This document shows positions 1 through 35,780 of a stretch of 35,780 nucleotides of DNA, in pieces (the first letter of the stretch is position 1; each line of letters opens with the position of its first letter). The translations under genes were made by a program, and so were the position numbers. This stretch comes from a virus (Duplodnaviria > Caudoviricetes): positions 1 through 35,780 of the IMG/VR virus record IMGVR_UViG_3300030372_002552; one strand, 5' to 3'. The notes below the pieces were generated by a model. That model was not told the DNA's origin. It saw only the letters and a list, made by a program, of their open reading frames with translations, and searched no databases.

Positions 1-3000
1 CATTTGAAGTCGGTTATAAAGACCATACCCAGTTGTATTTTCTCCACTAGCGGCTTGTGCATGAGTCTCAGAGTATATACCCATAAGATTTGAAAAACCA
101 GCATCAGCATCATTAAACGTCATTGATGTTTCAAGTCCAATAAAATCATCACTTGAATCTGATGCCCCAGCAGTTTTAGTGTGTTTATTTTCTAAACCAC
201 TATATGATGCCGTTGTATCAATAGTGGAATTGTTATTTTTTATTTTACCACAAAAAACTGTCGCTTTGTAACTTTCACTCATATAAACAGAGTCTACCGA
301 TGTATTACCAAGTGTTACTGAGTTATTTCCTTGACCAGCTACACCTTGACCTATTACTATTTGATTAAGTGCACCAGTAGCACTTACTCTTGAATTATGT
401 CCTAATATTGTATTGTTGTCACCAGTTGTTATATTGGTAGCACCTGTTCCTCCAGCCGCATATCCAATGCAAGTGTTACCCGTTCCCGTACTAATGTAAT
501 AACCGCTAAAACTTCCAACACCAGTATTCTCTCCGTGGTCATCTGTATCTGGATTCAATGAATACAATGATGAATAGCCAACTGCTGTATTATTATCACC
601 TACATCCATATTAGAGTAAATAGCTTGGTATCCAAGAGCTGTGTTCCTTTTTCCTGTACTACAACCACTTAATGATTGATACCCAACTGCTGTGTTTTGC
701 TGTCCTTCTGTCAATAAATTAAGTGCTTCATACCCAATAGCTACTGTACCAATAGCATCAGCAGTAACAAGTGCACTAGCCATAGACGAATGACCTACGG
801 CAACTGTTCTTGTGGCACTTGTTGTTGTATGACCAGCAAAGTCTCCCACAAATGTATTTAAAGAACCCACACTTAAATCTTCTCCGCTACGAGAGCCAAG
901 TGCGACATTAAAGTCACCACTTGTAACTGATTTTAAAGCTTGGTAGCCTACTCCAGTATTATAAATGGCATCATTCATAGAGCCAGTTGCAATACTTTCA
1001 CCAACAAAAACATTATAGTTACTACCCGCATCCAATGATGTGGCTGTACTTTTTCCAAAGATAGTATTTGATGTACCGCTATCATTATTAGATAGTGAGA
1101 TTCGGGAGTTGTTGTCAATTATAAAATTTGTTGTACTTTCATTTGTTAAAAATCTATGCTGACTTGATGTACCAGTAGTTGTATAATCTATATGCCCACC
1201 AGATACTGCATTTAATAAATCAATATCAGAATTGCCTGTTGAACCAAATCCAAAAGAACCCATCATAGTAGTAGTTGCATAAAATTCTATAAAACCTATC
1301 GCCCCATTACCAGTTGCAGTATCTTCAAGCCTAATAGCTGGAGTACCACTTTTGATATGCAAAATTCTGTCTGGAGAGTCCTCGTTTATACCAACATTCC
1401 CACCATTAGAAATCCTCATTCTTTCAACAAGCGTTGTAGATGAAGTTGGAGTTGTTGAAAATACTAAATTACCCGGTGACTGACTTGCTGATGGCGGCCC
1501 ACCTTCACTTGAAGAGGTTATAGATGCACCATAACCCGAGTATGTGTTATCACTATAAGCTGACCTAAATCTAATACCTCCGTGCAAATCGTTAGTCTCA
1601 GATGGAGCGGAGGCATTTTCATCATACTGAAAAGTAATATATGAACCACCAGATGCTGTTCCAGACATCTCCATAATTAAGCCATCGCCTTCATTTGTGC
1701 TTGTAATAAAGTGAGCCGCAGGCCCTGTACTATCTTGCTGAATCTTTAAAGGTATAGTACCAGTAGAAGATGCGTGATTATTATGTAAATACATTAAATT
1801 ATTTACATTACTTCCTGTATTACCAGCGTGGTCAATTTTAAAAGCACCATCAGTCGCTGTTGTTGCCATTGAAGTAGATAGGATGTTTGCATTAAATAGA
1901 TGGCCAGTAGTTAAACCACTTGCACCATCAATTCTTATCACTGCTCCAGTTGTTGTTACTGGGCCTTCAAAATAAAGATTATGAGTTGTAGTAGCTTCTG
2001 AATCAATATGCAATGAAAAGGCATCAGTAGCATTTTGGTCTATTTTTACAATTCCAGCAAAAGTAGCATTACCAGAAGGTGTGATTACGAGTGCATTATT
2101 ATAAGCATTATTTTCCAAAACAGAAAACGTCAAAGACGCATCCATATTTGCACCAGTAGAAAAATCTGCTTCTTTTTTAGCAGTTATCTTAGCACCACCT
2201 CTAATAGTCGAACCATCTCCTAAATTAAGACGTAAAGCCGATGTCTCATTTACAGATGAACTGCCACCAGTAACATTGTCAAGTGCTATAAAAGCATCAC
2301 CATCTACGCTTTGTGAAAAAGTAGCACCTTGACTTGAGTCTAATGTAAGTGCATCTGTGCCATTACCACTTCTTAATGTTAAGATACCAGAGGCGTGTTG
2401 AGTGCCAAGTTTTAATGTTTTACTATGGTACTCGTAAAATAGATTCGCACCATTCAAATCATTTGCAGAACCAAATATAATAGATGATGTATGCCCAGAT
2501 GATTCACCAGCCAGAATTGACATTCCAGCATCAGCATTGTTTCTTATAATAAATTCATCACCATCTACATCTGGTGTACCTGAAACTGTACCATCACTAC
2601 CTTGTATTTCTAATTTACCCGCTGGAGAAGTTGTATTTATACCTAATTGACCTGACGAATCTATACGCATACGCTCAGTGAAGGTTGTTCCATCAGAAGT
2701 AGATATTTCTCCAAATGAAACAGGTTCACTGGAATCAGATGGCCCAGCAATTCTAACACCAAAATTTGAGTTTACACCAAGACCAGTAACACTTGTACTG
2801 TTTTTTCTTAGATTAATTATTTGGGAATTGTTACTTGTTACGCCAAAATCTAAATTGACTGATGGTGAAGAATTATTTATGCCAACTCTTGAATTAGTAG
2901 TATCTACAACAAATACATCACCAGCATCAGACTCTTTCCTAACCAGAAAAGCCTCTGTACCAGTAGCATCTATAATTGTGCTATTAGATACAACAGATGT

Positions 3001-3120
3001 TAAATTGATACTTACATCGCCACCTACACCCAGCGATCCAGTAACTGTAAGATCTCCGTCAACTGTCCCTCCTGTAGATAAATTAGCGGCTACCGATTTA
3101 CCAAGGACTGATTCAATCAT
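1..3120 (-). CDS. Large tail/virion fibre protein, allele A (at least 1040 aa, runs off the left edge)
   Basis: ATG at 3120 (MIESVLGKSVAANLSTGGTVDGDLTVTG...). The frame was read at both ends and across the repeat junction and reaches position 1 (...GYGLYNRLQM). It is absent from the ORF track, consistent with having no stop. Contains fibre motifs (RVGINNSSP, ERMRIDSSG) and N-T-A-V-G-Y-Q-S/A-L beta-helix repeats. Confidence 0.85.
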   Translation of the reverse strand, partial: MIESVLGKSVAANLSTGGTVDGDLTVTGSLGVGGDVSINLTSVVSNSTIIDATGTEAFLVRKESDAGDVFVVDTTNSRVGINNSSPSVNLDFGVTSNNSQIINLRKNSTSVTGLGVNSNFGVRIAGPSDSSEPVSFGEISTSDGTTFTERMRIDSSGQLGINTTSPAGKLEIQGSDGTVSGTPDVDGDEFIIRNNADAGMSILAGESSGHTSSIIFGSANDLNGANLFYEYHSKTLKLGTQHASGILTLRSGNGTDALTLDSSQGATFSQSVDGDAFIALDNVTGGSSSVNETSALRLNLGDGSTIRGGAKITAKKEADFSTGANMDASLTFSVLENNAYNNALVITPSGNATFAGIVKIDQNATDAFSLHIDSEATTTHNLYFEGPVTTTGAVIRIDGASGLTTGHLFNANILSTSMATTATDGAFKIDHAGNTGSNVNNLMYLHNNHASSTGTIPLKIQQDSTGPAAHFITSTNEGDGLIMEMSGTASGGSYITFQYDENASAPSETNDLHGGIRFRSAYSDNTYSGYGASITSSSEGGPPSASQSPGNLVFSTTPTSSTTLVERMRISNGGNVGINEDSPDRILHIKSGTPAIRLEDTATGNGAIGFIEFYATTTMMGSFGFGSTGNSDIDLLNAVSGGHIDYTTTGTSSQHRFLTNESTTNFIIDNNSRISLSNNDSGTSNTIFGKSTATSLDAGSNYNVFVGESIATGSMNDAIYNTGVGYQALKSVTSGDFNVALGSRSGEDLSVGSLNTFVGDFAGHTTTSATRTVAVGHSSMASALVTADAIGTVAIGYEALNLLTEGQQNTAVGYQSLSGCSTGKRNTALGYQAIYSNMDVGDNNTAVGYSSLYSLNPDTDDHGENTGVGSFSGYYISTGTGNTCIGYAAGGTGATNITTGDNNTILGHNSRVSATGALNQIVIGQGVAGQGNNSVTLGNTSVDSVYMSESYKATVFCGKIKNNNSTIDTTASYSGLENKHTKTAGASDSSDDFIGLETSMTFNDADAGFSNLMGIYSETHAQAASGENTTGYGLYNRLQM
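709..1254. repeat. Copy 1 of a ~546-bp direct repeat shared with 35235-35780
   Basis: Constant offset of 34,526 with no indels. 1105-1254 is identical to 35631-35780. About 27 substitutions (hand count) in 721-1104. Confidence 0.95.
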
Positions 3121-3123
3121 AAT

Positions 3124-4148: not shown

Positions 4149-5036
4149 TTAACTTGCGTTAGTGAACTTGTAACCTCTGATATTATCAGAGTCATCAAGT
4201 AGCTTTACACCATACAGGGTATGGGCTACAACTTTCGTCCCCAAAACATCAATATCATACTGATTTTTAACGTCAATATCTCTTTGTACTGCCATAGCAC
4301 ATGCACTCTTGTGATAAATCACACCAGATACGTTTGTACCGCCTGTTGATAAAGAGTTAGACATTAGCACTGGCATACCCATCAATCTGCCAACAACCCC
4401 AGATAGAGCTGGGCTATTATCAGAGTTGAAACCAGTAATATCAGACCTGACAAAACTTGCACCAAAAGTACCAGCAGGATTAAGCATGTCTGCATATAAC
4501 TTTGGATTAACAACAAAGAAAACATCACCAGATGTATAGTCAATGTCATTCTCGCCAAGATTAGCAATAGCGGCCTCAAACTCGGCGGCTGTAATTTGGT
4601 CATCTGTCGTTAAGGTTGCACCATTATTAACAGTGATCAACTGTGCCGCAATGTCTGAATCAACCTGCTTTGCGAGGGCATAGCCCATAGCTTTGCCGTA
4701 TGCAGAAATAAGATCATAAGATGACTGAACCTGTAAAACATCAGTAAACAGCTTTGCACTGTAGTAGTGCTTGTCTATTGTAAGCTGTGTGTTTGTTTCA
4801 GCAGGAGCTACATAGCTAACCTGTGCACCATCAGTAAGACTGGATGCAGTCATTTTTGCGATTTCAGGAATATGGATAATTTTTCCGCTACCCTGAACAA
4901 GTGAAGAATAATCCTCAACAGTATTTTTAAAGACTAATCTTTCCTCAAAATATTTATAGATTAAGTCTCCCCAGAGCTCTGGAATAAAATCCTGTGTTAC
5001 TCCAGTATCAAATATAGTTCCAGAAGGTGTTGCCAT
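4149..5036 (-). CDS. Major capsid protein (HK97 fold)
   Basis: FIPELW, IHIP, LTIDK, GYALAKQVD, VGRLMGMPVLMSN and LYGVK motifs; follows the scaffold gene. Confidence 0.9.
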   Translation of the reverse strand: MATPSGTIFDTGVTQDFIPELWGDLIYKYFEERLVFKNTVEDYSSLVQGSGKIIHIPEIAKMTASSLTDGAQVSYVAPAETNTQLTIDKHYYSAKLFTDVLQVQSSYDLISAYGKAMGYALAKQVDSDIAAQLITVNNGATLTTDDQITAAEFEAAIANLGENDIDYTSGDVFFVVNPKLYADMLNPAGTFGASFVRSDITGFNSDNSPALSGVVGRLMGMPVLMSNSLSTGGTNVSGVIYHKSACAMAVQRDIDVKNQYDIDVLGTKVVAHTLYGVKLLDDSDNIRGYKFTNAS

Positions 5037-5037
5037 T

Positions 5038-5592
5038 TTAATTTACCTTTTGTTTGCGTGTGGACTTTCGGTCATAGGCTTTAAGCAATTCTCCAAAATT
5101 TTGACGTTTAAACTTGTCATCATTTGTCATAAATGTATCAAGATTAACGTTTTGATTAGTACGCCCTTGCACAGCCTCTGCTGGGTTGGATACGTCAGGA
5201 GCATCTTTCTGCCTCACGAAATGTCGTAATTGTTCTAAATTCATGTTTTCATAATGCACCCTCTCATCTTCAGGAATAGCCTCTAATAGTGACTCCCTCT
5301 GAGCCGCTACCTGCTTTTCAAACACGCCCAATCTACTTTCCATTGCTTTGTTTTGCTCTCGTAATTCAGCAATTAAATCATCTTTTTTACCTTCAGCAAT
5401 TAGCTTTGCCTGACGATCTTCCTCTGCCTTTACAGACAGCTTATCGTTTTTAGACTCAGCCTCCTGTGCTCTGGATCTCAAAGATTGAGAATACTTTTTT
5501 TCCTTCTGATACAGTGCCTCGTAATCTACATCCCCATCTGGTGACATAGTTTGAGCATCCTGCTCTTCAACTTGTGTTGTTTCTTCAGCCAT
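5038..5592 (-). CDS. Capsid scaffolding protein
   Basis: Acidic N-terminus and long coiled coil, directly upstream of the capsid gene; SD AGGGAG. Confidence 0.8.
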   Translation of the reverse strand: MAEETTQVEEQDAQTMSPDGDVDYEALYQKEKKYSQSLRSRAQEAESKNDKLSVKAEEDRQAKLIAEGKKDDLIAELREQNKAMESRLGVFEKQVAAQRESLLEAIPEDERVHYENMNLEQLRHFVRQKDAPDVSNPAEAVQGRTNQNVNLDTFMTNDDKFKRQNFGELLKAYDRKSTRKQKVN

Positions 5593-5631
5593 CTGGCTTA
5601 TCTCCCTGCTTTTTTCATATATGAATATAGG

Positions 5632-5649
5632 CTTAAAATTATTTTTAAG
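5632..5649. promoter_or_regulatory. Near-palindromic 18-mer, candidate operator
   Basis: CTTAAAATTATTTTTAAG. Its reverse complement recurs at 12786-12803 at nearly the same distance from the island promoter. Confidence 0.4.
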
Positions 5650-5666
5650 AGTATATATTTTTTTTC

Positions 5667-5711
5667 TTGCACTATATGCCTCTTATGTGTTATACTTGTT
5701 ATAGATATGAT
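5667..5711 (+). promoter_or_regulatory. Island promoter P1
   Basis: TTGCAC-N18-TATACT (extended TGn) followed by the invariant TGTTATAGATATGAT. Confidence 0.85.
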
Positions 5712-5750
5712 GATTGATTTTAAACATTTTAAAAGAGGAGATAAAAAAAA

Positions 5751-6035
5751 ATGAAAAAAGCAGACATAATAAAAGAATTAATTGGCTCTGAGTTTCATTT
5801 CTATGATTATGGAATATGTTATCTTAGAGAAAATGGAGTCATAGTTCACTGGGGAGAGCCTTGCTATGTTGAACATAATGGCAAAGAGGTAATTGCAAAC
5901 CTTTACAAACTTCCAAAGGTCTGGGCTGAGTGCTGTGCAAATAGCAATTACTATTACGAGTGGTATGGGCCAGAAGATAAAGAGGTTTACAGCCGCATGC
6001 TTAGAGAAGAGTTAAAAATGGAGTTTGGAATATGA
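5751..6035 (+). CDS. Hypothetical early protein
   Basis: 94-aa ORF with SD AGAGGAG, directly downstream of P1. Confidence 0.75.
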   Translation: MKKADIIKELIGSEFHFYDYGICYLRENGVIVHWGEPCYVEHNGKEVIANLYKLPKVWAECCANSNYYYEWYGPEDKEVYSRMLREELKMEFGI

Positions 6036-6400
6036 TGAAAATACATGACATGACAAATGTAAAAGATTATTCTGTTGAGTATGACAAGATAATGAATACT
6101 AACCTTGAAATCATATACAATGCAAACAAGGAATATAATTCTCTAAAGGAGATGTACTCTTTCTCTGTTGATCCAAAATACACTTATATAAAGAGCGTTC
6201 CTTTTGGCGTGAATGGTTATACTCATCCTGTTCATAATAAATGGGTAGATGATATTCTTGAGTACATGGGAATAGAAAAAAATGCATGTTTGGACAGCCC
6301 AAGGCACAATAATAAACTAAGATATTCTTTCAAAAGCTATGAGGAGGCCGTTGCGGCGTTGTTCATGGTAAAAAAGTCAATAGATAAACACCATAAATAG
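6032..6400 (+). CDS. Hypothetical early protein
   Basis: 122-aa ORF coupled to the previous gene by an ATGA overlap. Confidence 0.7.
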   Translation: MMKIHDMTNVKDYSVEYDKIMNTNLEIIYNANKEYNSLKEMYSFSVDPKYTYIKSVPFGVNGYTHPVHNKWVDDILEYMGIEKNACLDSPRHNNKLRYSFKSYEEAVAALFMVKKSIDKHHK

Positions 6401-6423
6401 TATCCAAAAAAGGAGGTAGTTAA

Positions 6424-6780
6424 ATGACAAAATTAATGCAGTTGTACGATGTTATGAGAAAACAACATTGGACAGTAAGAATAATTGACGAAGGCGATAG
6501 GTATGGCCGTGACATGTGCCTTGTTCAAGAAAAAAGTGAGTATGGCCCTATTGTTGAGTTTTACGATGCTGACCATGATTTTGACAGAGGGCCAAACAAT
6601 GAGTATCTTGGCCAGTTTGTTTCCAGATATTATATTGAAACTTTACTAAGCGATGATTATGGTGGTGCAATAGGAACAGGTAGAGGATTAAATTTATGTG
6701 GACATGAGCCCAAGTGGGAGATCAGTGGCCCAGCAATGGACAGAGTAGCTGAATTTTGTAACAATTATATTAATCAGTAA
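6424..6780 (+). CDS. Conserved hypothetical mobile-element protein
   Basis: Strong SD AAGGAGGT. The GDRYG...VEFYD...GQFVSRYYxxTL...GLxL motif resembles small proteins of phage/plasmid early regions. Confidence 0.75.
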   Translation: MTKLMQLYDVMRKQHWTVRIIDEGDRYGRDMCLVQEKSEYGPIVEFYDADHDFDRGPNNEYLGQFVSRYYIETLLSDDYGGAIGTGRGLNLCGHEPKWEISGPAMDRVAEFCNNYINQ

Positions 6781-6815
6781 TAGATATATATATTTAAAAA
6801 GTAGTAAATTTTAAT

Positions 6816-7106
6816 ATGGCAAAACCAATTATAGATTATGTTGCCATCTATGGTATGGTAGATACACCAGATGCACCATCTGCTGTTGCACGGCGTACAA
6901 GGTCTGACGATCCAGATATTTACTTAACAGAAATATGCACACCACGATCTAAGTGGGAAGAGTCTAACACTGTTATACGCCACTTCATTGGCTTGGAGTC
7001 TAACAGTGAGCCAGTACCTGAAAAAGTTGCTATGTATTTTGTGGATCAGTGGCGTGATGACTGGCCACAGCCAAAATTTGAGACTGGCGAAAAAGATCTT
7101 AGATAA
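6816..7106 (+). CDS. Putative immunity protein for the MuF-fused RelA/SpoT-type toxin
   Basis: 96-aa acidic ORF, tail-to-tail (8-nt overlap) with the toxin gene. The YxA...PxxVxRR...E...W...G...VxExxA...W pattern resembles small proteins next to such toxins. No SD; TAAATT lies 5 nt before the ATG. Confidence 0.6.
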   Translation: MAKPIIDYVAIYGMVDTPDAPSAVARRTRSDDPDIYLTEICTPRSKWEESNTVIRHFIGLESNSEPVPEKVAMYFVDQWRDDWPQPKFETGEKDLR

Positions 7107-8313
7107 GTTCAATTCCTAAGTTTTCTAAATATTGTTTAAAAGTATTTAGCTCATTTATTTGATTCCATCCTGCTGGCTCTGGTACACTTTTGTAAATATT
7201 AACTAATTGATTATCTAATTGTTTTTTTCTTGCTTTTGTAGTGCCCACCAGCCTGTACTCTTCATATATTTTATGAGCTTGATCCATTTTTACTTTAAAT
7301 GATACTGGTGTATGAAATTGCAACTCAACATATTGGCCGTAGGGATTAGCCCAAGCAGTGTTGATACCTTTGTACCCTGAATCTGGCCCCCATGTATTTT
7401 TTACTTTAAAACTTTTCCACCCAAGATCCTTTAGATCGTCAATAGTGCCGAGGGTTGCTTTTACATAGGTGGCATCATCTACCAGCATTGTATAACGTAA
7501 GGCATCTTTTACATTTTGGATTAGCACATCTCTGGCACTGTATTTGTTTTCCATACTCTCTGTTACAATCTTTCGTATTAAACTATCTCTTGACTTTAAA
7601 TGATATGCTAACCCTTCCATTTTGCCACCATTTTTAGTTGCCAATTTTTTGAATATGGAATCTGTTTCATCTACATATATTTTAGCTTTTCTGATTGCTT
7701 TATCAGCTAAAGGTGCGGCCTCTACGCCATTTAACGGCATAAAAACATCTGGCCTGCGTTGCCTTTCCATTGTTCTTTGCATCTGGATCCTTGGCGATAT
7801 TTTACCAGATGGATCTAAAATGCAATAGCAGTAACCACCACAAACTGACCATCCTGTTGCTGGCAGACCTGCACCTTCCCAATCCTTTAACGTTTGCATC
7901 TGGCCGCCTCTTGGTGCACAGTCCGCACAAATTCTATGGCCTGCCACTGTGATCCAAGTAAATAAAGTTTTATCATTTACATCATAAGCCTCAAAAGCTC
8001 CAGCTCTACCAGAATTATTTATACCTTCAACCAGACTTTCTTTTATAGTATTTCTAATTTCTCCAAAAATTGCACCTCCGTTGGCCATATCGTTAGCAAG
8101 CCCAGCAGTGATTGCCGCAGTGCTCATGCCAGCCGCAGACTGAGTTGCTATTGTTTTATTCACTCTGGATTCAAATATATTTGCATCAAACAGCATTTTA
8201 TTCATTGTTTGATCTAATAATTCCCTTGCCTCTGGAGGTAGCTTTGCAAGGCCATCTAAAACATCTTTAAAATCGCTACCAAATAATGCTATCAGTTCTT
8301 TTTGCGTAGCCAT
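7099..8313 (-). CDS. MuF/SPP1 gp7-like minor head protein fused to a RelA/SpoT-like nucleotidyltransferase (Apk2/Tas1-like) toxin domain
   Basis: MuF motif WITVAGHRICADC...LP...CGGYCYCIL. C-terminal synthetase motifs LKSRDSLIRK, DALRYT, KNTW..SGYKGIN, VELQFHT, HKIYEEYR. Confidence 0.88.
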   Translation of the reverse strand: MATQKELIALFGSDFKDVLDGLAKLPPEARELLDQTMNKMLFDANIFESRVNKTIATQSAAGMSTAAITAGLANDMANGGAIFGEIRNTIKESLVEGINNSGRAGAFEAYDVNDKTLFTWITVAGHRICADCAPRGGQMQTLKDWEGAGLPATGWSVCGGYCYCILDPSGKISPRIQMQRTMERQRRPDVFMPLNGVEAAPLADKAIRKAKIYVDETDSIFKKLATKNGGKMEGLAYHLKSRDSLIRKIVTESMENKYSARDVLIQNVKDALRYTMLVDDATYVKATLGTIDDLKDLGWKSFKVKNTWGPDSGYKGINTAWANPYGQYVELQFHTPVSFKVKMDQAHKIYEEYRLVGTTKARKKQLDNQLVNIYKSVPEPAGWNQINELNTFKQYLENLGIELI

Positions 8314-8804
8314 TAAATATCAATAGATTTTACAATTCTTCTAAGCGACATTCTCACATACTTTTCATACTGAGCACCATTTTTACGCATATCTTTTGTA
8401 ACGCCAAACCATTCACGCTTTGGAACTTTTTTATCTGGTATCATGGAATTAGATCCAGTTTTAAATCCTTCATTATGATATACGCCATAGTCAGTTTGCA
8501 TCTTAACTTGTGAAACTAATTTTGATGGCTTTGCTGGTATCACTTTAGTATTTCTTAATTTTTTTTGCCTCTCGCCTTTCATCCTGTCCAGTGGTGTAAA
8601 TCCTTGACCTCGTTTATTTCTGATGTCCAGAGTTGATTGTTTTAATTTTTCAAATGATTTACCATTTATATCTACAGAGCTACTAAGGCCTCTTTGTATA
8701 GACTCGTTTTGATACACGGCCATCTGTGATAATGTATCTGCAATAATATTAGTGATTAATTTTGTTGCTTTTTTAAAACTATAATTTCTTTTAGACTTAA
8801 TCAT
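8313..8804 (-). CDS. Virion morphogenesis protein (Mu gpG-like)
   Basis: YGVYHNEG...VPKREWFG motif; basic protein. Confidence 0.7.
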   Translation of the reverse strand: MIKSKRNYSFKKATKLITNIIADTLSQMAVYQNESIQRGLSSSVDINGKSFEKLKQSTLDIRNKRGQGFTPLDRMKGERQKKLRNTKVIPAKPSKLVSQVKMQTDYGVYHNEGFKTGSNSMIPDKKVPKREWFGVTKDMRKNGAQYEKYVRMSLRRIVKSIDI

Positions 8805-12767: not shown

Positions 12768-12785
12768 TTAGCTATTTTAATTTAC

Positions 12786-12803
12786 CTTAAAAATAATTTT
12801 AAA
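12786..12803. promoter_or_regulatory. Second copy of the near-palindromic 18-mer
   Basis: CTTAAAAATAATTTTAAA, between the terL start and promoter P2. Confidence 0.4.
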
Positions 12804-12821
12804 TATTATTCATTTTTTTAT

Positions 12822-12866
12822 TTGCATGTAATATATACTATATGTTATATTTGTTATAGATATGAT
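12822..12866 (+). promoter_or_regulatory. Island promoter P2
   Basis: TTGCAT-N18-TATATT-TGTTATAGATATGAT. Confidence 0.85.
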
Positions 12867-12900
12867 GATCAATAACAAAGAAAACACAGCAGGAGTTGAC

Positions 12901-13128
12901 ATGGACAAAATACAGAACATTGTCAAAAGAATGATTGGCGATCATGTAAAAGTAGCCCTTGCAAATCAAGACAACTATGATAATGATGGTAATGTTATAG
13001 ATGACTATGTTGCGGCAGATGTTAAGATTGCAATGGATAATGATAACTGGATGAATGTTGACGATCTTATAGATGACGTTCTAAAAGATCATGGCATTTA
13101 TCAAAGTGCAATAAGGAGAGTAGCGTAA
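12901..13128 (+). CDS. Hypothetical acidic early protein (alternative in-frame start at 12862)
   Basis: SD AGGAG before ATG 12901. Confidence 0.7.
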   Translation: MDKIQNIVKRMIGDHVKVALANQDNYDNDGNVIDDYVAADVKIAMDNDNWMNVDDLIDDVLKDHGIYQSAIRRVA

Positions 13129-13391
13129 TGAAAACAGTATATGTTGTTTCTGGTAGTGAAGATGGAATTATAGGAGTCTATGGTAATAAAAAGGCGGCTT
13201 ATAATAAATGTATTGAATACACTGGCGGTAAAAGTTATGATACATATAGTGGAATTGTAAAGCCATTATCTTATGCAAAGTGCTGTAAAGAGCTGAATAA
13301 TAAAGAGTATTATACAGGGCATTTTGACTTGTATGATTATCACAATGTGGACACAGGTGCATCCATAGAAATGCATACTTTGAATCATTAA
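13128..13391 (+). CDS. Hypothetical early protein
   Basis: 87 aa, SD AAGGAG, TAATG coupling. MKTVYVV...IIGVYGNKKAA motif is common in small phage proteins. Confidence 0.75.
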   Translation: MKTVYVVSGSEDGIIGVYGNKKAAYNKCIEYTGGKSYDTYSGIVKPLSYAKCCKELNNKEYYTGHFDLYDYHNVDTGASIEMHTLNH

Positions 13392-13395
13392 TAAC

Positions 13396-13472
13396 TTTGG
13401 GCCGCAGACACGGACAAGGCTGTAGAGTATGAAACACGACTGTGGGAGGCGAGTGGTGATCTGTGGCCCAGA
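13396..13472 (+). ncRNA. Putative structured RNA 1
   Basis: GC-rich intergenic segment closed by a 13-bp stem TTTGGGCCGCAGA/TCTGTGGCCCAGA, whose G-U pairs favour the + strand. Confidence 0.5.
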
Positions 13473-13509
13473 AATTCAAGAGAAAAAATGGATTATAAAA
13501 AAATAATAC

Positions 13510-13554
13510 TTGCATCGTATTATTATTTAGTGTTATAATTGTTATAGATATGAT
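13510..13554 (+). promoter_or_regulatory. Island promoter P3
   Basis: TTGCAT-N18-TATAAT-TGTTATAGATATGAT. Confidence 0.88.
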
Positions 13555-13594
13555 AAACAATAATCAACAATTCATTAATTACGGAGGTCAAAAA

Positions 13595-13972
13595 ATGAAT
13601 TATGCTCAAATCTTAAATGAGGCCCATGAGGCAGGTATGGTGGCTGGAAGTGCCAAAGTTCCTGCTCCTATGGTCGTTACAGAGCGTGCTAATCCTGTTG
13701 ATGATAGTAGCGAGGTCAAAAACCAGTGGGTTGTTCCTTCAGGTGTTTGTGGCTTTGCTTATGTCATTACAAATGAGCATGGCAATGGCAAGTTCGTTAA
13801 GTATCTTAAAAGTATTGGCGAAGGTCGCAAGTATTATTATGGTGGTCACTATGCCAAGTACGTTAGAGAGTTCGGCCAGAGCTATGAGCAAAAGATGGCT
13901 TATGCAGATGCCTATGCTCAAGTGCTCCAGAATTATGGGATCAAGGCTTATTCAGATGGGAGGCTCGACTAA
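13595..13972 (+). CDS. Conserved hypothetical phage protein (alternative in-frame start at 13550)
   Basis: SD GGAGGT. CGFAYV...QSYEQKMAYADAYAQVL..YGIKAY..GRLD motif. Confidence 0.8.
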   Translation: MNYAQILNEAHEAGMVAGSAKVPAPMVVTERANPVDDSSEVKNQWVVPSGVCGFAYVITNEHGNGKFVKYLKSIGEGRKYYYGGHYAKYVREFGQSYEQKMAYADAYAQVLQNYGIKAYSDGRLD

Positions 13973-14508
13973 TGGATAAATACATAATCGCAGGAGGCAA
14001 GAACTTCGTGAACAAGCCAAAGATGGTTAAAAACTGGGTTGGAAAGGTTAGCGGCCTAATGCCTGATGACATTGAAAACATAGGTGTGCCAGCCAGATAC
14101 TTTTCTGGCGGCCATCATGATCCTAAATACATTAGCACTGGCGGCGTTTCTGTGATCGTTAAAAAGATACACCAGCACCTAAAAAAAGTAGGTGTAATGC
14201 AGTACGTTAAAATCTGGGTTAAAAGTGAAACGTATTCTGGAGGCAGTTCAGTAAAAGTGTATTTTGATCGTGCAAGCAATGACACCATAGAGCTATCCAA
14301 AAAAATCATGGATGCCCTTGAGTATGGTTCTTTTAATGGAATGATTGATTTGTATGAATACAAAAACGATGTAAGACCAACTTACAAGATAAATCATAAT
14401 GGTGCAGAAATAGAGCTAAGTGCAAAATACAACTTTGTCTATGATAACCCTCCTTACGGCACGCCAGAATATGACCAGTATAAAAAAAGACAGAATCCTG
14501 CAAATTAA
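13972..14508 (+). CDS. Protein with LPD29-like (large polyvalent protein-associated) domain
   Basis: VKIWVKSETYSGGSSVKV...FNGMIDLYEY resembles the LPD29 signature. Confidence 0.65.
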   Translation: MDKYIIAGGKNFVNKPKMVKNWVGKVSGLMPDDIENIGVPARYFSGGHHDPKYISTGGVSVIVKKIHQHLKKVGVMQYVKIWVKSETYSGGSSVKVYFDRASNDTIELSKKIMDALEYGSFNGMIDLYEYKNDVRPTYKINHNGAEIELSAKYNFVYDNPPYGTPEYDQYKKRQNPAN

Positions 14509-14510
14509 AC

Positions 14511-14555
14511 TTGCATCGTATGTATTCTGTATGTTATATTTGTTATAGATATGAT
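14511..14555 (+). promoter_or_regulatory. Island promoter P4
   Basis: TTGCAT-N18-TATATT-TGTTATAGATATGAT. Confidence 0.85.
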
Positions 14556-14583
14556 AGTTAAACACAAACAAATGGGGCCAAAA

Positions 14584-14886
14584 ATGAAACTAATGACAAA
14601 AGAAATCGAAAAAAAACTTCCTGCTCTTTATGATACAGAAAAAGTAGCTTTGGCAGATAAAGAATTGGTTGCGAAGTTCTTTACTCCTTGGAGCCACTGG
14701 ACATGGTACGCTGTTGAGTATGACAAAAATAGCGGCGACTGCTTTGGATATGTTCACGGCGACTCTGATGAGTGGGGATATTTTAATTTGGAAGAGCTAA
14801 AAAAAGTTACAGGGCCTTTTGGTCTTAAGATTGAGCGTGATAAGTTTTGGAGTCCTGTAAAATTTTCAGAACTAAAGGATGCATAG
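14584..14886 (+). CDS. DUF2958-family protein (alternative in-frame start at 14551)
   Basis: KFFTPWSHWTWYAVEYD...FGYV...EWGYFNLEEL...GLKIERD. Confidence 0.85.
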   Translation: MKLMTKEIEKKLPALYDTEKVALADKELVAKFFTPWSHWTWYAVEYDKNSGDCFGYVHGDSDEWGYFNLEELKKVTGPFGLKIERDKFWSPVKFSELKDA

Positions 14887-14887
14887 A

Positions 14888-15184
14888 ATGGCAAGCTATA
14901 AAGGATATAAAAACAAAAACACTTTTGATTTTATATTGACTATTATGAATGATCAGGATGACTACACTACAGCTATGGATATGGTAAAAGATGCAAATGG
15001 CGTAATTTCATTAACAGATACGCTCAGAGACTGGGCTATTGACATGGCTGATGATGCATTAAGCTCTTACCAGTACACTCATCCTTTCATAAAAAGCGTT
15101 GTAAATAGTGCAATAGCAGAAGTTGATTTTTATGAGGTTGCTGAAACGCTAATTGCAGACTCTAAAGAACTAAAGGAGGTTTAA
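14888..15184 (+). CDS. Hypothetical early protein
   Basis: SD AAAGGA; YKGYKNKNT...VDFYEVAE motif. The ORF track start is 14879. Confidence 0.7.
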   Translation: MASYKGYKNKNTFDFILTIMNDQDDYTTAMDMVKDANGVISLTDTLRDWAIDMADDALSSYQYTHPFIKSVVNSAIAEVDFYEVAETLIADSKELKEV

Positions 15185-33848: not shown

Positions 33849-35780
33849 TTATTCTGTAATAAAAGTACCAGAAAAAAATACTTCCATATTATCATTTTCA
33901 CCAAAATCATCACCCATATTGCTTTCTTCATTACTGTTAGCTCCTTGAAAAAATAATACTGTTGAATTTGGTAATAAAGTTGCGTTAATTACATCATCAG
34001 TACCAAGAGAAGAACCTGTTACTAAAACTGGAAATACTGACCTTAAATTTGTCGTATTTTTAGAAGTGAAAGGCATACCACTTATTCCAATATTATCATC
34101 TACTCTTGCATTATCAGCGTTCCACTTTAAATAAATTTGGAAATGGCACATATTGCCTATTTTTGTATATGCTCCAGTTTGAGTAACATTTGTAGAGTTT
34201 GTCATATCATCAGAGTTTTGATAATAAATAGCTGGTGTAAAAGTGCCTTCTTCATAATTATCTAATGTATTAACATCTCCACTTGGGTTCGCACTTGCAT
34301 CATCTGGAAAGTTTATACCTGTTGTAACATTCACTCCAGCACAATGAACTGTAGCACCAACATCTTCTGCCATATAAACATCAGTACAATCCCCATTACC
34401 AATCGTTGCTGTGTTGTCTCCTTTTCCAGTTACGTGGTATCCAATTACTATTTGATTTTCTCCACCACCACCTCCATTTGGAGCCGCAGTATGACCTATA
34501 ATTGTATTATAATCTCCAGTTGAAAGATCACCGCCAGAATCTGCTCCTACTGCTGTATTTTTTGTTCCAGACGTTACAGCAGTTAAAGATTGATACCCGA
34601 CACCTGTGTTACCATCAGCCGCAGACGTTAAATTAGCATCAAGAGCCGCATATCCAATGGCTACATTCTCACTTGCTCCAGCATTTGTACCAGACATAGA
34701 AGAATTACCAATCGCTACATTTCTTTTATTTTCAGAAGATGTAGATGCTCCACCTAATGCTCCATAACCAAAAGCAACATTATCCTCACCTGTAGTTAAT
34801 TCATCCATTGCTTGGAATCCTACAGCCGTGTTCCTTGCTCCAGATGTCAGCGAACTAAGGGCTTCGTAACCAATTCCAATCGTACCTGTCATTCCTTGAG
34901 CATTACCTGTTGCATCTACAGCATTATAACCTATCGCAATATTTCCCACAAAATCTATGTTGTTATTCAAAAGGTCTCCACCAAGTAAGGCGTTTGTACC
35001 GATAGCAATATTGCCATCTATTTCTGTAGTAGAACGATAACCTTCAACAGCACCCATTGCATCAGTACCTATTGCGATGTTATGATTTCCACCATTAGCT
35101 GGTGCCGCTACTCCACCTGAACCATCTCCACCTTGCAAAGCATCCATAGAATTATGGCCAAGTGCAATGTTATTAGTTCCTGTTTGCATTAAGCTCATAG
35201 ACTGATACCCTATGGCTAAGTTTTTAGCCCCAGATGTCAATACATTAAGTGCTTCATACCCAATAGCTACTGTACCAATAGCAGTAGCATCAACAAGTGC
35301 ACTTGCCATACAAGAGTGACCTATCGCAACTGTCCTTTGGGCACTTGTTGTTGTATGACCAGCAAAGTCTCCCACAAACGTATTTAAAGTACCTACAGTC
35401 AAATCTTCTCCGCTACGAGAACCAAGTGCGACATTAAAGTCACCTGTTGTAATTGATTTTAAAGCTTGGTAGCCTACTCCAGTATTATAAGTGGCATCAT
35501 TCATAGAGCCAGTTGCAATACTTTCACCAACAAAAACATTATAGTTACTACCAGCATCCAATGATGTGGCTGTACTTTTTCCAAAGATAGTATTTGATGT
35601 ACCACTATCATTATTAGAGAGTGAGATTCTGGAGTTGTTGTCAATTATAAAATTTGTTGTACTTTCATTTGTTAAAAATCTATGCTGACTTGATGTACCA
35701 GTAGTTGTATAATCTATATGCCCACCAGATACTGCATTTAATAAATCAATATCAGAATTGCCTGTTGAACCAAATCCAAA
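33849..35780 (-). CDS. Fibre protein C-terminal part, allele B (open at the right edge; joins 3120-1255 on circularisation)
   Basis: The frame continues to 35780 in register with allele A. NxAIGxxA beta-helix repeats and a terminal LDNYEEGTFTP...YTKIGN...GMPFTS domain. Confidence 0.88.
   Translation of the reverse strand, partial: FGFGSTGNSDIDLLNAVSGGHIDYTTTGTSSQHRFLTNESTTNFIIDNNSRISLSNNDSGTSNTIFGKSTATSLDAGSNYNVFVGESIATGSMNDATYNTGVGYQALKSITTGDFNVALGSRSGEDLTVGTLNTFVGDFAGHTTTSAQRTVAIGHSCMASALVDATAIGTVAIGYEALNVLTSGAKNLAIGYQSMSLMQTGTNNIALGHNSMDALQGGDGSGGVAAPANGGNHNIAIGTDAMGAVEGYRSTTEIDGNIAIGTNALLGGDLLNNNIDFVGNIAIGYNAVDATGNAQGMTGTIGIGYEALSSLTSGARNTAVGFQAMDELTTGEDNVAFGYGALGGASTSSENKRNVAIGNSSMSGTNAGASENVAIGYAALDANLTSAADGNTGVGYQSLTAVTSGTKNTAVGADSGGDLSTGDYNTIIGHTAAPNGGGGGENQIVIGYHVTGKGDNTATIGNGDCTDVYMAEDVGATVHCAGVNVTTGINFPDDASANPSGDVNTLDNYEEGTFTPAIYYQNSDDMTNSTNVTQTGAYTKIGNMCHFQIYLKWNADNARVDDNIGISGMPFTSKNTTNLRSVFPVLVTGSSLGTDDVINATLLPNSTVLFFQGANSNEESNMGDDFGENDNMEVFFSGTFITE
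35235..35780. repeat. Copy 2 of the ~546-bp repeat (see 709-1254)
   Basis: Last 150 nt are identical to 1105-1254. Confidence 0.95.

Follow-up and report, generated by a model that had tools for sequence, protein, structure and literature searches.

The stretch of DNA analysed here, referred to as the window, is 35,780 bp long and makes up an entire virus record with a completeness rating of 100%. Its minus strand encodes the terminase, capsid, tape measure, endolysin, ssDNA annealing protein and replication initiator, and short plus-strand islands are interspersed among these genes. The minus-strand ORF at 7099-8313 is likely a divergent MuF-like head domain joined to a predicted alarmone synthetase of the Apk2/SaEAS type, as judged from sequence and model structure. 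It shares 8 nt (7099-7106) with a small convergent ORF on the plus strand, and the two are very probably a toxin gene and its immunity gene. The features are collected in Table 1.

Table 1. Features of the toxin-partner locus and of its surroundings in the window
Feature	Position	Strand	Remarks
Major capsid gene	4149-5036	-	Far side of the island from the partner
Likely scaffold gene	5038-5592	-	Assigned by position; beyond the island, with the capsid gene (4149-5592)
Early-type promoter (sigma-70-like, extended -10), TTGCAC-N15-TGTTATACT	5667-5696	+	Heads the island ending in the partner gene
Three small island genes between promoter and partner	5751-6780	+	Without family matches; swapped out in relatives
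GTAAATT, conserved -10-like element, edge of the toxin-partner module	6804-6810	+	5 nt 5' of the partner ATG
Likely Tis1/IapK-type immunity protein, 96 aa	6816-7106	+	Convergent with the toxin gene; 8-nt overlap
MuF-like head protein with alarmone synthetase toxin domain, 404 aa	7099-8313	-	phrog_7625, E 3e-25; structure matches
RelA/SpoT-type synthetase domain, aa 205-396	7126-7701	-	KS..S..RK, D..RYT, KGxN, E.QF.T; nearest SaEAS (8vx3), Tas1 (6ox6_A)
Conserved N-terminal carrier, aa 1-179	7777-8313	-	Divergent MuF-like; common to proteins with other toxin domains
GTAAATT preceded by an AT-rich palindrome, upstream of the gene for the large terminase subunit	12779-12785	-	Likely promoter of the late unit that includes the toxin gene, by inference

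The C-terminal half had been read from the letters alone as a synthetase domain, and all of the motifs named in that reading are present (KSRDSLIRK at 240-248, DALRYT at 270, YKGIN at 314 and ELQFHT at 330). Pfam RelA_SpoT matched the protein below its cut-off (E = 0.006), and phmmer with the C-terminal half matched SaEAS of Streptomyces albidoflavus at E = 8.6e-30. The model of the toxin domain (pLDDT 87) matched the same enzyme at E = 3e-13 (TM 0.72-0.77) and Tas1 (6ox6_A) at E = 8e-7, with the housekeeping synthetases ranking behind, so the nucleotidyltransferase fold on which the sequence-only reading depended was found. SaEAS is thereby the closest solved protein in both sequence and structure (PDB 8VX3; PMC12691689). 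Across 21 clade members, no variation was seen in the catalytic motif residues K, S, RK, D, RYT, Y.G and E.QF.T; the domain is basic (pI 9.4). The Apk signature includes RYT and GxN (PMC12226406), both of which accompany the Apk-type fold here, while syn4 is FH and not YH. Enzymes related to this domain produce A, G or both products; SaEAS yields both alarmones and two other relatives (p)ppGpp only (PMC12691689). We file the domain as Apk2-like, not as Apk2, since its predicted product may be (p)ppApp, (p)ppGpp or both.

The N-terminal 179 aa are likely a divergent MuF domain, a reading that runs through homologues. The N-terminal half of the window protein gave no MuF match in Pfam, PHROG or NCBIfam. 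The carrier homologue P0032 matched PF04233 at E = 2.6e-6 (28.6 bits, under the cut-off of 29.6), P0020 matched it at E = 9.5e-4, also under the cut-off, and the homologues reached E = 3.2e-5 against TIGR01641, below cut-off as well. Two Cys motifs, CxxC (129-132) and CxxxCxC (158-164), and the position in the head module agree with MuF. The name MuF head protein, given from sequence, is therefore carried by sub-cut-off matches of the homologues and not by a match of the window protein itself. Other proteins have the same carrier, ~60-74% identical, joined to zeta, ART, PARP-like or HExxH domains, and because this shared carrier bears varied toxin domains, the window protein belongs to a polymorphic toxin family. 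A constant carrier, a variable toxin C-terminus and a co-swapped cognate small partner were all found, with L096, L120 and L037 as exceptions.

The convergent ORF had been described as acidic and as the last gene of its plus-strand island, and it is: its pI is 4.7, with 18 D+E and 12 K+R, and it closes the island 5751-7106. Compared with its relative in L084, dN is 0.08 and dS 0.89, indicating purifying selection; against four other relatives dN is 0.15-0.40 and dS is saturated. Searches of PDB sequences, PHROGs, Pfam and NCBIfam gave no clear match, nor did a single-protein scan of viral contigs give any; the family, with 21 representatives from the profile search, surfaced through toxin loci and profiles. 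Neither the viral alignment nor that of genome contigs offered a stretch of sufficient conservation for scanning. The comparison with known Apk2 phages used their genes lying between toxin and hydrolase, which were defined by this iapK position and not as tested alleles. An iterated profile from the outgroup loci, blind to these genes, scored them at 25 bits (Mannheimia), 28 bits (Streptococcus) and 20 bits (Pasteurella), with 7.4 bits for the best shuffle; the first, un-iterated version scored them at just 2-7 bits. With hhalign, the partner family aligned to them with a profile-profile probability of 92.9% (E = 3.8e-7), so that homology to the iapK-position genes was found by both the iterated profile and hhalign.

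Structure predictions pointed in the same direction less sharply. A fold search with the partner model (pLDDT 88) ranked Tis1 (6ox6_B) second of 48,161 chains (Z 5.0, rmsd 3.6, 62 aligned), a match on a par with those to unrelated chains (2ra8_A, Z 5.2; 2jlp_A, 4.8) and short of what the tool regards as reliable, and Foldseek with the same model returned nothing at E <= 0.001. The nearest named Atlas cluster has PF24154 in 19% of its members (score 0.75), which serves as a lead only. The interface between toxin and partner that the sequence-only reading looked for does appear in the predicted complex (0.58; best control, 0.00), but its support is weak: the mark was attained by 116 of 157 solved pairs and 2 of 215 mismatched pairs, and it was attained with a score of 0.60 or less by only 18 of the 157 solved pairs, plus both mismatches. 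At least 82% of contacts agreed between runs, with a partner pLDDT of at least 80, and the score may reflect likeness to the solved Tas1-Tis1. Taken together, sequence and models indicate that the 96-aa ORF is a genuine gene, likely encoding an immunity protein of the Tis1/IapK type. A same-strand 62-aa ORF (6924-7112, minus strand) was also considered as the immunity gene and was rejected, being unconserved and seen in only 2 of 20 cases.

To describe the pairing across the clade, carrier loci were gathered from five loci, the best 80 of 243 viral matches and the best 80 of at least 264 metagenomic matches; with the window, this gave 163 loci, duplicates counted. Among the matches listed, the partner profile was found in 36 of 41 synthetase loci, antisense in all 36, and in none of the 122 non-synthetase carrier loci. 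Of the five synthetase loci without a partner match, four have no more than 26 nt of downstream sequence and the remaining one is L096. Clustering at 95% gave 100 clusters, 10 of which were left out for having less than 250 nt downstream. Among the matches listed, an antisense partner lies opposite 59 of 62 non-redundant toxin-extended MuFs, and none of 28 short MuFs has any of three partner families. The 59 partners fall into the Tis1/IapK-type family (22, all with synthetases), a CxxCxH family (27) that faces PARP-like, zeta and ART toxins as well as two classes of peptidase-like ones, and another family (10) that pairs with the HEYGH class; partner family F0 is shared by several toxin classes. 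The partner overlaps the toxin stop in 49 of the 59 loci. The three exceptions are L038, with a cut-off antisense copy, L120, with a same-strand partner, and L037, with none, and in the double toxin L149 both matching partners are present. The antisense layout of toxin and partner is thus clade-wide, with the partner family following the toxin class, and these counts uphold the co-occurrence and the conserved convergent orientation by which the pair was to be checked. The idea that the layout is peculiar to the alarmone toxin was rejected, since it is common to the ART, PARP-like, zeta and peptidase-like classes.

Exchange of toxins and partners is frequent in this clade. On a tree of 57 carriers, toxin-partner labels changed 33 times, with 35.6 changes after shuffling and a minimum of 12, and near-identical carriers with swapped cassettes were observed (L114, L115 and L035; L019 and L022). 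In L096 the synthetase is intact and identical to the one in L095, yet a zeta-type partner faces it (L096:95-2602), which is either a natural mismatch or a mis-assembly. Over 19 pairs, partner divergence correlated more closely with that of the carrier (rho 0.79) than with that of the toxin domain (rho 0.69); the mirror-tree test could not separate toxin from carrier and so does not show domain-level co-evolution.

Several further arrangements were seen among these loci. The MuF proteins of L149, L150, L095, L024 and L038 have two tandem toxin domains, some with two antisense partners; the combinations are a synthetase with a peptidase-like, an ART or a JAB-like domain (the last being our label) and a zeta with a second domain. 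ORFs of 29-49 aa directly follow the MuF stop in L095, L096, L024, L037, L038 and L150. They come after ART-like or second domains, on the same strand except for the antisense one in L150, and are possible peptide antidotes; the same-strand ones behind some second domains measure 37-49 aa and tell against the antisense reading. The CxxCxH..C.A(F/Y)P..IP proteins (62-91 aa, phrog_33375, unnamed), partners of L017, L093, L009 and L023, belong to a family with class-specific sub-types, which possibly acts as a general scaffold for immunity that binds metal. In Flavobacterium phage lotta8-1, a gene of the CxxCxH family comes after a long MuF and is same-strand with it. Second and third plus-strand islands of the window (12862-15184) contain DUF2958 and a weak LPD29 match, and a DUF2958-like gene recurs in the partner-adjoining island of relatives.

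Outside the clade, the orientation is different. The outgroup consisted of 76 synthetase loci in other phages, drawn from the 80 best of 264 matches, of which 47 were non-redundant with enough sequence. Among the matches listed, the partner is on the same strand in 38 of 47, antisense in one (L221) and undetected in eight, seven of which show a small same-strand ORF by eye; the profile behind this count took up candidates as it was iterated, and its first round detected 16. An HD hydrolase comes next in 5 of the 47 loci. L221 (1981-4232), from an unrelated phage, pairs a MuF-synthetase with an antisense partner that overlaps it by 4 nt, likely an independent origin of the antisense arrangement. 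In L176, L190, L196, L218, L224 and L233, the partner domain is the N-terminus of proteins of 220-560 aa.

Promoter-like sequences on the partner strand were then compared. The form TTGCAY-N15/16-TGTTATA occurs five times in the window, where 0.03 were expected, and four of the five either head a plus-strand island or lie inside one. We infer that this promoter type is early because the replication genes, which carry TTGCAT-17-TATAAT, share its kind. On the partner strand of the interval from scaffold to partner, TGTTATAHT was found in 25 of 25 loci (1.1 expected; one on the other strand), and the partner sits directly behind it, within 75 nt of its start, in 6 of the 25. The proposal that the antidote is transcribed early from the opposite strand is therefore favoured by an early-type motif at each of these 25 loci, but the nearer element, GTAAATT, need not be early because the identical hexamer precedes the terminase gene, also in close relatives. 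GTAAATT may act late or constitutively. In 5 of the 25 loci the early promoter is separated from the partner by a hairpin with a T-run, and there the partner would depend on GTAAATT and would perhaps be late; the window showed no such hairpin.

A leaderless promoter of the form TAGATA-N18-TAAATT had also been suggested for the partner. TAGATA (6781-6786), TAAATT (6805-6810) 18 nt further on and the ATG after another 5 nt are present, and GTAAATT is conserved, but TAGATA is not kept: it is replaced in close relatives and was rejected as a conserved -35. The sequence agrees with the sigma-70 consensus at 8 of 12 positions and is absent from the promoter candidates listed by the scan. GTAAATT occurs in the window at chance level (11; 11.7 expected), and it carries weight because it is conserved in relatives. 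TAAATT is found no more than 30 nt from the partner ATG in 36 of 57 cases, with a mean of 6 and a maximum of 14 in shuffles. The distance is exactly 5 nt in 18 cases, and when it is longer a Shine-Dalgarno site is present in 13 of 15, a pattern as expected of a putative -10 element. GTAAATT accompanies 16 of 19 loci with a far early promoter and 1 of 6 with a near one (p = 0.0055). Contigs from three runs (two studies) diverge from the window exactly at 6804, and one of them extends to 8798; since the likeness stops at the first base of GTAAATT, this position is taken as the module edge. Back-to-back units were observed at 5593-5700 and 12768-12860, kept in close relatives, with an early-type promoter on the plus strand and, on the minus side, an AT-rich palindrome (TTAAAA..TTTTTAAG) followed by TA(A/T)ATT upstream of scaffold and terminase. 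Late promoters may have an activator site in this palindrome.

Considering these results, the reading that we prefer is that the synthetase fusion would be made late, packed at low copy number and delivered along with the DNA, and that the 96-aa partner would be read from the early promoter and would plug the toxin's active site. The injected enzyme would drain ATP and stall the host briefly until the early unit makes the antidote, which would afterwards accumulate and cover late toxin synthesis. If the host destroyed the DNA before it was read, no antidote would be made. Early RNA may in addition run antisense into the 3' end of the toxin gene and damp leaky toxin mRNA; such read-through is possible because of the 8-nt overlap and because no terminator-like site was found at 5400-8500 of the window, where 2.1 were expected by chance. 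We give this whole reading, with its late, packaged toxin, early opposite-strand antidote and transient stall, an even chance of being right, and packaging of the fusion in the virion, by analogy, appears somewhat probable. Alarmone synthesis from ATP and the timing of the promoters are predicted from sequence, and packaging and injection are deduced because they are published for MuF/gp7: presence in the virion and delivery with the DNA is a hypothesis in PMC5576092 and PMC10083569 and has been shown for the short SPP1 gp7 only.

The first alternative is a real toxin-immunity pair without a timing role, in which the partner, captured once, shields the producer and the adjacency to the early island is incidental; in a variant, the partner may be co-packaged and the injected enzyme inactive. 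Short-MuF relatives are consistent with it, because there too an opposite-strand unit meets the gene head-on (14 of 28 share a terminase-small-subunit-like family) and the position thus predates the toxin. A same-strand partner exists in the clade (L120), and GTAAATT resembles the late hexamer. On the other hand, three unrelated partner families are antisense across many swaps though same-strand elsewhere, and the partner is immediately behind the early promoter in 6 of 25 loci. We regard this explanation as unlikely, though it deserves consideration.

It is improbable that the toxin acts in the producing cell, with injection incidental and the late toxin shutting down the host or timing the end of the cycle by overtaking the threshold set by an early antidote. 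Opposite strands permit separate timing, a catalytic toxin from the late unit could outrun a 1:1 inhibitor, and an Aph1-type hydrolase was not found (HD_4 in 0 of 2 records). Nevertheless, an ATP drain during packaging would harm the phage, very unlike toxin classes have only the carrier in common, which points to delivery, and full-length Apk2 is less toxic than the isolated domain (PMC10083569).

The observation that the genome has no recognisable integrase is confirmed by family searches of the window, and the tyrosine integrase PF00589 was found in none of 11 clade records of 90-100% completeness. In five clade records, PF07508 (serine recombinase), PF00717 (S24 repressor), PF13614 (ParA), PF01381 (HTH_3) and PF16684 (protelomerase) were each found in none. 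Among 185,579 species genomes there was a single distant match (28%) and no close copy. This absence of markers suggests that the clade is lytic, so the published association of MuF toxins with temperate phages is not seen here at the marker level. Under a hidden lysogeny, lysogens would hold the immunity, competitors would be poisoned, and the antisense promoter would keep the prophage immunity on. The published MuF toxins all come from temperate phages (PMC5576092), many ORFs of the window are without a family, and a separate promoter of sigma-70-like type would be in keeping with a prophage; we nonetheless give this explanation little credence, as six marker families are missing from 5-11 records that are 90-100% complete, close copies are missing from the species genomes, and there is no repressor to silence the strong island promoters. 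That the early antidote serves mainly to shield an infected cell from the toxins of like phages that co-infect it, with toxin diversity reflecting phage-phage competition, fits the negative frequency-dependent selection implied by rapid swapping among near-identical carriers but is very improbable, since a rival phage carries its own antidote gene, orphan immunity arrays were not seen and the partner family is in 0 of 122 non-synthetase loci.

Returning to the injected toxin with an early antidote, a same-strand late operon could not supply antidote before toxin in a fresh infection without the immunity stock of a lysogen, and this need for the antidote first would explain why a lytic clade keeps the partner in the early unit. 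As a tentative and rather doubtful extension, a widespread lytic marine clade may use injected, freely swapped toxins as a fail-deadly timer. If true, entry would poison the cell and only reading of the early unit would bring the matching antidote from the opposite strand; the host would be stalled during phage set-up, and hosts that destroy the DNA would die anyway.

In colicin-type bacteriocins, toxin and immunity genes lie on opposite strands with separate promoters, and the immunity protein is present before the toxin. The window pair resembles these systems in its opposite strands and separate promoters and differs from them in that they are secreted, plasmid-borne or chromosomal, built of unrelated proteins and without virion delivery. 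Opposite-strand immunity in colicins is a table entry in PMC5821083.

The closest known relatives are the Apk2/IapK (BcTis1)/Aph1 prophage loci of Streptococcus pneumoniae, Mannheimia haemolytica, Pasteurella multocida and Bacteroides caccae (PMC12226406, PMC10083569). The window protein shares with Apk2 a likely MuF-type N-terminus and a synthetase with RYT and GxN, its toxin domain being 32-37% identical to phage homologues, and its partner is homologous to the iapK-position gene. Unlike Apk2-IapK, the partner is on the opposite strand with an early-type promoter and no lysogeny markers were found; syn4 is also different and the MuF domain is below the Pfam cut-off. The same-strand downstream immunity gene of apk2-iapK(-aph1) is replaced by an antisense one in 36 of 36 clade matches, and the HD hydrolase aph1, variable in published loci, had no HD_4 counterpart in two clade records. 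Tas1(Apk1)-Tis1 of Pseudomonas aeruginosa (PDB 6OX6) is like the window pair in toxin fold (E 8e-7) and perhaps in partner fold (Z 5.0), and occlusion of the active site, as in that pair, is the mode expected of the window partner. It differs in its carrier, a T6SS PAAR protein instead of a phage head protein, in being a co-expressed pair, and in sequence (~20% and 3% identity).

Polymorphic toxins of the MuF type (Jamet et al. 2017, PMC5576092) and MuF-linked polyvalent proteins (PMC5512222) likewise have a conserved head-module carrier. As in the window's clade, the C-termini of published MuF toxins vary among ART, peptidase-like, zeta and RelA-like domains, and a small gene adjoins the toxins and not the short MuFs; fusions of MuF with ART, zeta and RelA are covered by PMC11699363, PMC5512222 and PMC3482391. 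In contrast to the marine clade of the window, which has no lysogeny markers and antisense partners in 59 of 62 cases, no MuF toxin was found in virulent phages in PMC5576092, and published models lean on lysogeny for this reason. According to PMC12254948 and PMC10083569, the part that MuF toxins play in the phage cycle is not known. Our literature searches, which covered mainly the main texts of open-access papers, gave no paper on a MuF toxin with an antisense partner or a lytic carrier; the supplementary tables of Jamet and Ahmad may list orientations or marine members. By its make-up, the window protein is a MuF polymorphic toxin, and the pair would work like Apk2-IapK. The parts are known; what is new is the clade-wide antisense layout and the unexpected phage lifestyle, with a predicted function. 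A marker-free clade with at least five toxin classes and early-type opposite-strand antidotes points to a role at infection, and keeping toxin and antidote apart makes their timing testable. Three class-matched partner families are also supplied, which same-strand downstream searches would miss.

The sequencing runs in which the window was found are marine metagenomes, with no RNA dataset listed among them. The carrier domain was found in none of 50,697 cultured-phage records, and the top matches of the terminase are ~31% identical. A terminal repeat of the window was looked for and none was found; the two ends share a 300-nt repeat that is 87% identical. Open tail-fibre-like frames lie at both ends (1-3123 and 33849-35780), and they are probably a single circularly permuted gene region.
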